NCBI GenBank assembly: GCA_900552555.1
Contig: URZW01000002.1
Location: forward strand, 82,002 to 146,001
Origin: an uncultured Clostridium sp.
Lineage (GTDB): Bacteria > Bacillota > Clostridia > TANB77 > CAG-508
Length of the DNA: 64,000 nucleotides
Direction of reading: 5' to 3'
Below are positions 8,251 through 9,486 of the stretch, one piece after another. Both the position numbers and the translations under genes were made by a program. The notes beneath the pieces were generated by a model. The model saw only the letters and a program-made list of their open reading frames with translations. It was not told where the DNA came from and did no database searches. Within the stretch, counting starts at the first letter, position 1. Each line of letters starts with the position of its first letter.

Positions 8251-9486
8251 ATGTGGGGAAATATAGCAATAGCATTTATACTGGCATTTGTAGTAACATT
8301 TGTAACTACACCATACACAATGAAAATTGCAAAAAAAATAGGAGCAATAGATGTACCAAAAGATGAAAGAAGAGCACACAAAAGAACAATGCCAAAATTT
8401 GGTGGACCAGCAGTAATATTAGGATTTTTAGTTTCAACAATTTATTTATTAATTGTAATGAGCATAGAAAATTCAATAAATCTATTTGGTGTACAAGAAT
8501 ACTGGAAAAAACTATTAGGATTTTTAGCAGGAATATTGATAATTTCAGCATTTTGTATAGTTGATGATATAAAAACCATAAAACCATTAACAAAATTAAC
8601 AGGACAAATATTAGGTGCAATATGTATTGTAGCAGCTGGAATAAGAATAGATGGAATAACATTACCATTTTTAAATTTTCCAGAGATGCATGAAATCACA
8701 TCAGTACTACTAACATTAGCCTGGATAATAATTGTAACAAATGCAATAAACTTAATAGATGGTTTAGATGGACTATCATCAGGAATATCAGTAATATCAG
8801 CACTTTCATTATTAGTAATATTTGTATTAAATGGATCATCATTAATATCAATAGTACTAATAACAGCACTAGCAGGAGCATTAGTAGGATTTTTACCATT
8901 TAATTTTACACCAGCTAAAACATTTATAGGAGATACAGGCTCAAACTTTTTAGGATTCTCATTAGCAGTAATCTCAATATTAGGGTCAGCTAAAACATAT
9001 ACAGCGGCAGTAATTGTATTACCACTTATTGTTTTGGGACTACCAATATTTGATACGGTTTGGGCAATAATAAGAAGATTAATAAAAGGAAAATCAATAA
9101 AAGCAGTATTCAAAGCAGATAAAGGACATTTACATCACAGGTTAGTTGCAAAAGGATTTAGCCAAAAACAAGCAGTTCTTATTTTATATGGAATAAGTGC
9201 AATATTTGGAATGTTTGCAGTAATATTATGTGACAGTGGAATTTGGAAAGCATTATCATTCTTATTAATTATGATAGTTGCAGTTGCATTAGGATATAAG
9301 AATTTTTCTGTTGAAAGAACAGGAAATGAACAATATGAATGTACTCAATGTAAGTATATTTATAATCCAAAGTTTGGAAATGAAAAAGCAGGAATTGCAA
9401 AGGGAACAAAGTTTGATGATTTACCAGAGGATTGGGTTTGCCCAGTTTGTGGTGAAGGTAAGGATATGTTCCAAATTCATGAATGA
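8251..9486 (+). CDS. WecA/TagO-family (MraY-like) polyprenyl-phosphate N-acetylhexosamine-1-phosphate transferase fused in frame to a C-terminal rubredoxin domain
   Basis: N-terminus reads [27 protein letters not shown] with multiple TM helices and an IDGLDGL motif. The last ~50 aa, [12 protein letters not shown]...[18 protein letters not shown], is a canonical rubredoxin with CxxC...CPxCG. Confidence 0.8.
   Translation: [411 protein letters not shown]

Follow-up and report, generated by a model that had tools for sequence, protein, structure and literature searches.

A WecA/TagO-like glycosyl-1-phosphate transferase fused in frame to a C-terminal rubredoxin in uncultured gut Clostridia

The locus considered here raises two questions: whether an open reading frame that runs from a polytopic glycosyl-1-phosphate transferase into a rubredoxin encodes one genuine protein, and, if so, what a rubredoxin does on such an enzyme. 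WecA of Escherichia coli, TagO of Bacillus subtilis, and TarO of Staphylococcus aureus are UDP-GlcNAc:undecaprenyl-phosphate GlcNAc-1-P transferases of the PNPT superfamily. Little is understood of how bacteria control the commitment of undecaprenyl phosphate, a scarce lipid carrier, to secondary wall polymers, and there are hardly any descriptions of TagO/WecA-type enzymes being controlled directly after translation. A natural, conserved fusion offers a clear hypothesis, namely, that the initiating step receives a redox or iron input. The first-pass annotation regarded the pairing as uncharacterised, and no paper describing a PNPT–rubredoxin fusion, or any other characterised precedent, was found in the searchable literature.

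One reading frame for two domains

The following features define the fusion gene in the window, i.e., the whole 64-kb stretch of DNA that was analysed.

8239..8244, + strand: Shine–Dalgarno sequence GGAGGA, 6 nt 5' of the fusion ATG (read directly from the sequence)
8251..9486, + strand: complete fusion ORF with an ATG start, 411 amino acids, and a TGA stop (read from the sequence)
8251..9306, + strand: PNPT (WecA/TagO-like) membrane domain, residues 1–352, 11 transmembrane (TM) helices (Pfam, NCBIfam, AF2/Foldseek, TM and positive-inside analysis)
9307..9333, + strand: variable tether between TM11 and the rubredoxin, residues 353–361, about nine residues (lowest conservation in the protein)
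9334..9483, + strand: rubredoxin domain, residues 362–411 (Pfam, PDB matches, fold, conservation)

The in-frame fusion proposed by the first-pass annotation is borne out: the peptides quoted there are all found in this single 411-aa ORF, and neither a stop codon nor a change of frame separates the transferase from the rubredoxin. Separate translation of the rubredoxin was rejected, as no in-frame ATG is present between TM11 and the domain. Pfam calls both domains, each exceeding its curated cut-off: Glycos_transf_4 (PF00953) at residues 89–245 with 128.2 bits (cut-off 27), and Rubredoxin (PF00301) at residues 361–407 with 67.3 bits (cut-off 23), the latter covering the entire model, positions 1–47.

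The initial worry about a chimeric join is dispelled by the public data. The exact fusion protein is present in public collections on seven independent contigs, its 90% identity cluster comprises 520 member sequences, some of which occur on more than 200 contigs, and both Pfam domains are found in all 120 of the 120 best database matches. In a survey of its spread, the full-length fusion was found in no fewer than 80 species-level genomes, all of uncultured low-GC gut Clostridia; residues 1–411 are contiguous in 80 species-representative genomes, except for five with a conserved +1 shift (see below), and at least 80 species keep one fusion ORF at 63–98% identity. Repeated assembly, the two-domain matches, and the number of species rule out a chimeric join or a lost stop codon. 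Thus, the gene encodes one polypeptide, in which the transferase is followed by a short tether and a complete Cys4 rubredoxin.

The transferase and the rubredoxin domain

The transferase part has the following sequence features.

8515..8985, + strand: Pfam Glycos_transf_4 core, residues 89–245 (Pfam profile)
8563..8568, + strand: catalytic Asp-Asp, D105–D106, on a cytoplasmic loop (invariant in the 62-sequence alignment)
8740..8772, + strand: NxxNxxDGxDG motif, N164 to G174, on a cytoplasmic loop (N164, N167, D170, G171, and D173 invariant)
9127..9138, + strand: HLHH motif, H293–H296, on the K/R-rich cytoplasmic loop 5, residues 275–306 (alignment)

Pfam, NCBIfam, and PDB/Foldseek fold matches agree that the N-terminal part is polytopic and MraY/WecA-like. 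In an alignment of 62 sequences, which takes in 46 non-fused relatives, D105, D106, N164, N167, D170, G171, D173, H293, and H295 are invariant, and H296 is conserved in at least 90%. The AF2 model (pLDDT 84.7, pTM 0.80) has a polytopic fold resembling those of MraY and DPAGT1, with Foldseek E-values of 1.5e-12 (target-normalised TM-score 0.74–0.81) and 5e-10, respectively. The best NCBIfam model is that of WecA (TIGR02380), with 116.3 bits (cut-off 326), which is well below the enterobacterial WecA equivalog level. Judged by these profiles, the transferase is WecA-like and not an enterobacterial equivalog, and, the score being so far under the cut-off, its substrate and product polymer can be assigned by similarity only; orthologue names in NCBI and JGI likewise denote this transferase by similarity.

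The description of the enzyme as catalysing the first committed step holds in part: TagO/WecA enzymes catalyse the initiating step, whereas it is TagA that is usually named as the first committed step of wall teichoic acid synthesis (PMC6493773). No glycopolymer genes (tagA, mnaA, or a teichoic-acid or polysaccharide cluster) were found in the 64-kb window.

MraY has 10 TM helices, and WecA and TagO have 11, with a cytoplasmic C-terminus. Two hydrophobic helices (residues 305–329 and 331–351) follow the HLHH loop of the fusion protein, and a cytoplasmic C-terminus is upheld by the 11 TM segments, their positive-inside alternation, and the placement of all catalytic motifs (DD, NxxNxxDGxDG, and HxHH) on K/R-rich loops predicted to be cytoplasmic, loop 5 having 10 Lys and Arg against one Asp or Glu. 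Conservation falls to 0.71 across residues 346–360 and to 0.37–0.44 at single tether positions, and the tether is modelled with low confidence (pLDDT below 50 at residues 356–358). With a cytoplasmic C-terminus and a short tether, the rubredoxin lies on the active-site face of the membrane, within a few nanometres of the active site. Hence, the protein shares with WecA, TagO, and TarO the Glycos_transf_4 domain, 11 TM helices, the cytoplasmic C-terminus, and the three motifs, but it differs from all of these characterised enzymes in its C-terminal rubredoxin, from WecA in its low score (116 vs. 326 bits) on the equivalog model, and from the group in its genomic context, which is a housekeeping rpiB–hsp33 one rather than a polymer gene cluster.

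The putative iron-binding residues of the rubredoxin lie in two Cys knuckles.

9340..9351, + strand: first knuckle, C364 and C367
9439..9450, + strand: second knuckle, C397 and C400

The claim of a textbook rubredoxin is supported by profile, fold, all four cysteines, and the aromatic core alike. PDB rubredoxins are matched at 1e-15, and the predicted domain superimposes on the rubredoxin of Clostridium pasteurianum (CpRd; 1t9o, 1c09) with an RMSD of 0.6 Å over 52 residues, 54% identity, and a target-normalised TM-score of 0.95. This 54-aa Fe(Cys)4 carrier and the fused domain share the CxxC...CPxCG pattern and an aromatic core of Y, Y, Y, F, W, and F, and among 75 orthologues, C364, C367, C397, C400, Y369, Y371, F388, W395, and F407 are 100% conserved. 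The stand-alone rubredoxin equivalog level (NF045768, cut-off 90 bits) is not reached either by the full protein (72.2 bits) or by the domain alone (77.6 bits). Mean column conservation is 0.87 in the rubredoxin and 0.86 in the enzyme, which shows, at the level of the alignment, that purifying selection on the former is as strong as on the latter.

In contrast to CpRd, the fused domain is tethered to a polytopic membrane enzyme, lacks a start codon of its own, and has non-canonical residues in the second shell of the metal site, Q366 (conserved in 75%), K368 (91%), and E402 (95%), which occupy the positions of V8, G10, and V44, respectively. Residue 44 has been tied to the reduction potential via a hydrogen bond from the backbone NH to Cys sulphur (PMC10130062). 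The net charge is also changed, from −9 in CpRd to −3 in the fused domain, compared with −6 in a free rubredoxin encoded downstream of the fusion. Such a free, canonical rubredoxin gene immediately follows the fusion in approximately 13–16 relatives; it has been lost at the locus in many lineages, including that of the window, where no other rubredoxin gene is present in the 64 kb, while the fused copy is always kept. The altered metal-site flanks and acidic docking surface beside a canonical free copy point to functional divergence. The fused domain does not seem to be a recent copy of the adjoining gene, as it is 48–62% identical to the free copies and thus about as distant from them as from CpRd.

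A redox-relevant conserved cysteine was also sought in the transferase. C102, just before the DD motif, is conserved in 71 of 75 orthologues, and no tie with the rubredoxin was seen; C125 and C327 vary.

Distribution, neighbourhood, and a frameshifted sub-clade

Within a single clade of uncultured gut Clostridia with low GC and small genomes, the fusion is of ancient origin. Judged against the nearest 50%-identity clusters, all of which lack the rubredoxin domain outside the clade, it appears to be clade-restricted. The closest non-fused relative (P0121) is 62% identical to the fusion protein and has a pyruvyl-transferase gene nearby; no rubredoxin gene was seen at its locus, and an older functional link between tagO and rubredoxin via gene adjacency is therefore unsupported. 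Orthologues are named in NCBI either "rubredoxin" or after the transferase, i.e., after one part only, so that current annotation hides the two-domain architecture.

Non-fused relatives bear variable C-terminal tails or other domains at the same attachment place. For example, a fusion of TagO with MnaA, a UDP-GlcNAc 2-epimerase (P0124), and two CoA_binding_3-type fusions (P0168, P0240) also have their additional domains after TM11, at the cytoplasmic C-terminus. Hence, the C-terminus of PNPT enzymes is a recurrent fusion site for pathway partners such as that of P0124. These add-ons are nucleotide-sugar enzymes with an obvious link to the pathway, whereas rubredoxin has no such link.

The gene neighbourhood comprises three further features.

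7781..8236, + strand: rpiB, ribose-5-phosphate isomerase B (Pfam LacAB_rpiB, 9e-52)
9516..9588, + strand: long hairpin, GC-rich in its inner stem, with a U-run (predicted RNA fold of −37.8 kcal/mol, z = −4.5 vs. shuffles)
9639..10526, + strand: hsp33, redox-regulated chaperone family (Pfam HSP33, 2.2e-91), a conserved downstream neighbour

The order rpiB–fusion–hsp33 is common to at least 80 species-level genomes, and the adjacency of rpiB and the fusion is kept in nearly all of 80 related loci. The rpiB stop codon and the fusion start are separated by 14 nt, and the two genes are probably co-transcribed. The hairpin, which a simple consensus terminator scan did not pick up, is a probable terminator of this unit, and hsp33 is probably transcribed separately; the strong hairpin with its U-run between the two genes makes co-transcription with the fusion unlikely. 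The redox theme of this neighbour is therefore only suggestive.

In one sub-clade of relatives, the complete protein can be made only if ribosomes shift by +1 at a rare CGG codon within the rubredoxin domain. The equivalent codons of the window are in frame.

9373..9378, + strand: codons F375–G376 (TTT GGA), equivalent of the UCN-C-GGN shift site of the sub-clade

The UCN-C-GGN site is present in nine alleles for which DNA is available, and 19 protein clusters terminate there. Downstream of it, differences at the three codon positions of the +1 frame number 90, 66, and 533, and 420 codons differ synonymously compared with 157 that differ non-synonymously. CGG occurs approximately 0.6 times per 1000 codons, and five of the seven CGG codons in the frameshifted loci are the shift sites themselves. 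A conserved site, purifying selection, and lack of independent initiation, as expected of a programmed +1 frameshift, are thus all seen in the alignments of these relatives. Other explanations of the shift were rejected: an assembly error, as the 19 clusters come from several sources and the common site is not a homopolymer; a frameshifted pseudogene, given the strong third-position bias downstream; independent initiation of the +1 part, as five of the nine alleles have a +1-frame stop and then no start codon before the site; and a shift at AAA_UGA, as the stop is found at differing positions and the only variation of GGN and AAY in the +1 frame is synonymous. A pattern scan of metagenomes for the site gave no match.

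In glass-sponge mitochondria, +1 sites contain a rare CGG_(A) or UGG_(A) that arose when a C or T was inserted 5' of GGA (PMC5009743). Similarly to these and to Ty3-type sites, an extra C 5' of GGA or GGU yields a very rare 0-frame CGG in the sub-clade, and the downstream frame is conserved; by contrast, its site lies in a bacterial chromosomal gene, has Ser UCN as the P-site codon, and is known from sequence alone. The sub-clade is thus a candidate bacterial case of hungry-codon +1 recoding.

Possible roles of the attached rubredoxin

The transferase chemistry needs no electrons, and therefore the rubredoxin is probably an accessory rather than a catalytic module. The reading that we favour, with a probability of roughly 0.4, is that it responds, on the cytoplasmic side, to redox state or metal and acts on the transferase. 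The transferase would make Und-PP-GlcNAc (or a related HexNAc product), initiating a wall-linked glycopolymer, and the rubredoxin would report the cytoplasmic redox or iron status to it: the Fe2+/Fe3+ state, oxidative unfolding, or loss of the metal may alter the packing of the domain on the cytoplasmic loops, the obvious candidate being loop 5, where the HLHH nucleotide-sugar site lies. Such a change would adjust both the start of glycopolymer synthesis and its use of the common undecaprenyl-phosphate pool in these strict anaerobes when they are exposed to oxygen or short of iron. The fold calls, the topology that places the domain on the active-site face, its conservation, its specialised second shell and lowered negative charge, and the recurrent attachment of pathway partners to this C-terminus speak for this reading, and dependence on a frameshift in one sub-clade fits a dispensable, dosage-tunable accessory domain. 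On the other hand, among residues of the cytoplasmic face, those specific to the fusions, and hence candidates for a docking site, are few (K288, N351), the K284–A285 insertion in loop 5 is also found in the non-fused P0121, and in other respects the fused domain is a commonplace rubredoxin of the electron-transfer kind.

Two systems offer precedents for rubredoxin domains as regulators, in the sense of comparable operation only. The rubredoxin-type domain of LapB adjoins the substrate site of LpxC, and a redox-coupling role has been proposed (PMC13333357). Like the fusion protein, LapB is a membrane-anchored envelope-biogenesis protein with a cytoplasmic C-terminal rubredoxin-type domain placed by the substrate site of an early biosynthetic enzyme; it is, however, an adaptor/inhibitor with a separate partner protein, whereas the fusion is the enzyme itself, and it differs in its Gram-negative hosts, pathway, and remaining architecture, so that the resemblance is an analogy and not whole-protein homology. 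In PknG of Mycobacterium tuberculosis, kinase activity is controlled through the unfolding of its rubredoxin domain upon oxidation, according to Wittwer et al. (2016, JBC). Here too a rubredoxin domain is fused to an enzyme with electron-free chemistry, but PknG is a soluble Ser/Thr kinase of an unrelated pathway, and its module is N-terminal and divergent.

The main rival is a membrane-tethered electron carrier, which would pass single electrons from NADH:rubredoxin oxidoreductase (NROR) to enzymes detoxifying O2 or reactive oxygen species (ROS), the transferase serving merely for anchoring and co-expression and being itself unaffected. We consider this possible, if somewhat unlikely. The sequence and fold are canonical, with the 54% identity to CpRd and an intact aromatic core, and loss of the free copy at the locus in many lineages, the fused one always being kept, means that the latter could be the working rubredoxin of the cell; a second one is lacking in the window. 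Natural membrane-anchored, redox-active rubredoxins exist, e.g., RBD1/RubA of thylakoids and cyanobacteria (PMC6697814), as do natural fusions to redox partners, e.g., the Trichomonas FDP-Rd-NROR protein (PMC9364112) and the flavorubredoxin NorV, whose model is matched by the fusion. All of these, however, have single TM helices or true electron-transfer partners, whereas the partner here is a non-redox transferase. The carrier role also leaves the clade-wide choice of this enzyme as an anchor unexplained, and it does not agree well with metal-site flanks and an acidic docking surface that are altered and conserved while the co-resident free copy is canonical. Rubredoxin partners (rubrerythrin, flavodiiron protein, superoxide reductase, and NROR) are absent from the window, although 64 kb of an approximately 1.7-Mb genome says little.

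We regard as unlikely a purely structural metal knuckle, in which Fe or Zn would only stabilise the fold, and the domain would mediate dimerisation or recruit the enzymes or adaptors that come next (TagA-like, MnaA-like, or LCP partners), without any redox function. Interaction modules of the rubredoxin type do exist, that of LapB packing against TPRs and LpxC (PMC13333357), the less acidic surface would suit a new binding interface, and the tails and other domains of non-fused relatives occupy the same place; against this, the full aromatic core and a near-canonical rubredoxin sequence are kept, the NF045768 score of 72–78 bits, just under the 90-bit cut-off, is more than a generic zinc ribbon needs, and no binding partner was identified. 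An artefact or decay, i.e., mis-assembly, a sequencing error removing a stop, or recent neutral read-through into an adjoining rubredoxin gene, could be invoked because tagO–rubredoxin adjacency exists in the clade, some relatives having a separate rubredoxin gene directly downstream, but it is extremely improbable and refuted by the 120 two-domain matches, the seven identical contigs and many independent assemblies, the single ORF kept by at least 80 species at 63–98% identity, strong purifying selection on the rubredoxin, third-position bias in the +1 frame even in the frameshifted sub-clade (533 vs. 90 and 66), and the lack of an initiator Met in the fused domain.

Returning to the redox- or metal-responsive module, the fusion may connect redox or iron status with envelope synthesis. 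A bolder version, which we offer as a speculation with the odds against it, is a built-in redox/iron switch that would throttle or re-route the use of undecaprenyl phosphate in direct response to oxygen, ROS, or iron, its dose in the sub-clade being set by the +1 shift at the near-unassigned CGG and thereby tied to tRNA or arginine supply. If true, this switch would parallel, in a Gram-positive setting and within a single polypeptide, the redox coupling proposed for LapB–LpxC. The hosts are abundant but uncultured gut Clostridia, and the fusion provides a compact test system, a single polypeptide whose cofactor can be seen spectroscopically. GPCR–rubredoxin chimeras, in which rubredoxin is an engineered crystallisation partner for membrane proteins, are among the PDB matches, and, for structural work on the WecA/TagO class, the natural PNPT–rubredoxin fusion could be a convenient target.

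The fusion gene and its product

As the first-pass annotation had proposed, a WecA/TagO-family transferase continues in frame into a rubredoxin within a single open reading frame, and the peptides quoted there are present exactly.

8251-9486, + strand: fusion ORF, ATG start, 411 codons, TGA stop

A GGAGGA ribosome-binding site lies 6 nt 5' of the ATG, the distance from the rpiB stop codon to the start is only 14 nt, and the sequence between the transferase and rubredoxin parts contains no stop, frame change, or in-frame ATG. Long ORFs of the window end in TAA (38), TAG (5), or TGA (2), the fusion gene being among the few with TGA; CGG accounts for 9 of ~15,800 codons window-wide.

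Both domains are called by Pfam above the respective gathering scores, Glycos_transf_4 at residues 89-245 (128.2 bits vs. 27) and Rubredoxin, over the full model length, at residues 361-407 (67.3 bits vs. 23). The top NCBIfam transferase model is WecA TIGR02380 (116 bits), with MraY scores behind, and the rubredoxin equivalog model yields 72-78 bits. Among PDB sequences, MraY matches the N-terminal part at ~1e-13, and rubredoxins, clostridial and others, match the last 48 residues at ~1e-15. The Foldseek comparison agrees with these assignments, as residues 1-350 match MraY (E = 1.5e-12) and also DPAGT1, and the C-terminal domain fits Clostridium pasteurianum rubredoxin (CpRd) with 0.6 Å over 52 residues and 54% identity.

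According to hydropathy, the positive-inside rule, and the AlphaFold2 model (mean pLDDT 84.7, pTM 0.80), the protein crosses the membrane in 11 TM helices, from an external N-terminus to an internal C-terminus, and thus the cytoplasmic transferase C-terminus assumed initially is also predicted here. The invariant catalytic residues D105, D106, N164, N167, D170, G171, D173, H293, and H295 are all on K/R-rich cytoplasmic loops. The HLHH loop is followed by helices 305-329 and 331-351, a conserved GYKNF cap, and residues 353-361, the least conserved stretch of the protein (pLDDT <50 at 356-358), immediately before the rubredoxin. The rubredoxin is thus linked through a short, flexible tether to the cytoplasmic face of the membrane, where the active site also lies.

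Distribution and divergence of the fused rubredoxin

An assembly artefact, in particular the chimeric join considered in the first-pass annotation, is ruled out by repeated observation of the fusion. Assemblies from NCBI, ENA, and Logan contain the identical 411-aa protein on seven contigs, 520 sequences fall into its 90%-identity cluster, with single variants on up to 229 contigs, and a search of 5.8 billion proteins finds both Pfam domains in 120 out of 120 best matches (83-93% identical). With each GTDB species represented by a single genome, 120 relatives were found, and all of the best 80 (63-98% identical) encode residues 1-411; these 80 come from the gut of human, goat, chicken, rabbit, or mouse and belong to uncultured Clostridia or 'Clostridium sp. 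CAG' MAGs. The gene order rpiB-fusion-hsp33-ppaC-nlpC/P60-comEC is conserved in related loci, and the window (G+C 26.5%) carries sporulation and housekeeping genes (BofC, YqfD, Clp ATPase, PgsA, HtrA, CdaA, GlmS, UvrC, the Agr system, RNase R). The fusion gene is a core chromosomal gene, outside any mobile or polysaccharide island.

When 1.84 billion representatives at 50% identity were scanned in full with HMMER, 5159 relatives were obtained at E ≤ 1e-30, and in the best 150 the rubredoxin region is reached only by two fragments from the fusion clade (P0122, P0123); relative P0263 aligns over this region, yet has neither rubredoxin motifs nor a Pfam call. In P0121, the closest protein lacking the fusion (62% identical), an acidic tail takes the place of the rubredoxin; the gene for P0121 follows rpiB and adjoins a pyruvyl-transferase gene, and no rubredoxin was found in the examined locus. 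Over these best 150 of 5159 relatives, the fusion is a clade-specific, conserved, uncharacterised variant of two well-known parts. Other C-terminal additions among relatives are UDP-GlcNAc 2-epimerase (P0124), CoA_binding_3-type domains, and a tandem transferase, and the cytoplasmic C-terminus of the PNPT family is thus a fusion hot-spot, recurrently used and often for pathway partners. P0124 is a TagO-MnaA-like protein of 746 aa; P0130, P0168, and P0240 are other PNPT relatives with C-terminal fusions.

The full-text literature searched for rubredoxin with WecA, TagO, TarO, undecaprenyl, teichoic, or glycosyltransferase contains no description of this architecture, in line with the earlier impression that the pairing had not been characterised. 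In NCBI, some 411-aa orthologues are named just 'rubredoxin' (e.g., P0370 = MBS6253028.1), others 'undecaprenyl/decaprenyl-phosphate alpha-N-acetylglucosaminyl 1-phosphate transferase,' and never both; neither name reveals the fusion (orthologues concerned include P0370, P0042, and P0045).

In 75 full-length orthologues, the cysteines C364, C367, C397, and C400 and the aromatic core Y369, Y371, F388, W395, and F407 are invariant. Column conservation averages 0.87 over the rubredoxin and 0.86 over the enzyme; residues 346-360, comprising the last part of TM11 and the tether, average 0.71. An initiating transferase of WecA/TagO-like type, its catalytic motifs intact, and a bona fide rubredoxin fold on the same predicted membrane face are co-inherited and co-selected.

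The fused domain differs from CpRd, a canonical electron carrier, at the metal-site flanks, where V8, G10, and V44 correspond by alignment to Q366 (75%), K368 (91%), and E402 (95%), and is much less acidic (net charge -3 vs. -9). The hydrogen bond from the backbone NH of residue 44 to Cys S tunes the rubredoxin reduction potential (PMC10130062). In ~13-16 related species, a separate 51-aa rubredoxin gene lies 21-211 nt 3' of the fusion gene, before hsp33 (loci L032, L035, L039, L041, L044, L046-L049, L051, L054, L066, and others). Its product, whose sequence includes CPICGVGKDMFQKQD, is canonical, with CxxCG, the acidic loop, V44, and net charge -6. Species retaining the free copy are paraphyletic on the neighbour-joining tree; likely, the ancestral state was the fusion plus the free rubredoxin, and the latter was lost repeatedly, including in the window's lineage. 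No rubredoxin gene besides the fused one was found in the 64-kb window.

Possible roles of the rubredoxin

Transfer of GlcNAc-1-P requires Mg2+ and not electrons, and hence the rubredoxin would be accessory to the transferase. With a probability of about 0.4, the favoured reading is that the rubredoxin is a regulatory module responsive to redox state or metal: oxidation, unfolding, or metal loss would alter packing of the rubredoxin against the cytoplasmic loops, and this in turn would tune polymer initiation and undecaprenyl phosphate use. This reading is preferred because the metal-site shell and surface charge show conserved remodelling, the fused copy coexists with a canonical free copy, the transferase C-terminus displays a Rosetta-stone pattern, and two precedents exist. 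In LapB, the rubredoxin domain adjoins the substrate site of LpxC, and a redox coupling has been proposed (PMC13333357); the kinase PknG is reported to be regulated through oxidative unfolding of its rubredoxin domain.

The main rival, which we rate somewhat less probable, is that the enzyme serves only to tether a functioning electron carrier to the membrane, as in membrane-bound RBD1 (PMC6697814) and rubredoxin-partner fusions (PMC9364112); the divergence of the fused and free copies at function-relevant residues argues that the former is specialised and not a redundant carrier. A purely structural or interaction module is still less probable. The regulatory reading has a suggestive counterpart in the redox theme of the downstream hsp33, of the redox-switched chaperone family, although this gene is probably transcribed separately, since the interval between it and the fusion gene contains a strong, U-run-bearing hairpin (z = -4.5).

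Calling the transferase the first committed enzyme, as the first-pass annotation did, was slightly off: the step catalysed by TagO/WecA is the initiating one, and it is the TagA step that usually counts as the first committed one (PMC6493773). The fusion is of moderate interest for envelope biogenesis and anaerobe redox biology, and a frameshift sub-clade of relatives, for recoding specialists.

Frameshifted relatives and other features of the window

In this sub-clade, one extra C is present in the rubredoxin domain in five species-representative genomes and four contigs (L082-L085). The sites in the five genomes, homologous to window position 9373-9378, are:

L070, ~7120: frameshift site
L071, ~7120: frameshift site
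L072, ~2372: frameshift site
L074, ~7120: frameshift site
L076, ~2477: frameshift site

The shift alleles read AAR-UCN-C-GGN-AAY vs. AAR-UCN-GGN-AAY (K-S-G-N) in in-frame sister species; the window has AAG-TTT-GGA-AAT, without the extra C. Past the site, frame 0 meets a stop after 1-2 codons in most alleles and continues for 11 more codons in the 388-aa class, and precisely this point is where 19 distinct protein clusters (90% identity), drawn from several data sources, terminate. Such alleles are annotated as truncated transferases of 376-388 aa.

Pairwise differences 3' of the shift are distributed 90/66/533 over +1-frame codon positions 1/2/3, with 420 synonymous vs. 157 non-synonymous codons in this frame and 40/550 and 34/551 in the other two, which points to strong purifying selection on the +1 frame. 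In five out of nine alleles, a +1-frame stop lies 10 codons 5' of the site with no start codon between, and therefore the downstream half is not translatable alone, ruling out its independent initiation in these alleles. Variants GGA-to-GGU and AAU-to-AAC, synonymous in the +1 frame only, place the shift before GGN, over the 0-frame CGG. This codon is very rare in these genomes (~0.6 per 1000 codons), and the shift sites account for five of the seven CGG codons in the frameshift loci. With the extra C, the sub-clade needs a +1 ribosomal frameshift over this CGG to make the second Cys knuckle. The site matches the Ty3-type 'slow A-site codon' mechanism and resembles the +1 sites of glass-sponge mitochondria, likewise at rare CGG_(A) codons made by C inserted 5' of GGA (PMC5009743). 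On computational grounds, the sub-clade is thus a strong candidate for +1 frameshifting, programmed or compensatory, in a gene of a bacterial chromosome, which would imply that cells contain the transferase both with and without its rubredoxin. In P0358 (388 aa; one cluster only), the frame is disrupted in another way, at a later point of the rubredoxin domain; either an error or a pseudogene may account for this.

In the window, comEC (13171-15132) is split by a single in-frame TAA at 14296-14298, leaving two ORFs that share one frame, DUF4131+Competence and Lactamase_B; since the region is read through without a stop in 34 out of 34 relatives examined, the TAA is either a sequencing error or a nonsense mutation specific to the window. 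Between an NMT1-type binding protein and rpiB, a 306-aa membrane-protein ORF with a TTG start (6625-7545) has no Pfam match, is present in only one out of 80 related loci, and resembles an insertion specific to this lineage; 3' of it lies a perfect, bidirectional terminator-like hairpin (7562-7588). An Agr-type quorum-sensing module occupies 50119-53183:

50119-50778: AgrB
51137-52486, minus strand: GHKL histidine kinase
52470-53183, minus strand: LytTR response regulator

Finally, an integrated conjugative element may have left a remnant at 34758-39387 (minus strand), where a TraG/TraD-type coupling-protein-like ORF (768 aa) lies beside large ORFs without a Pfam match.
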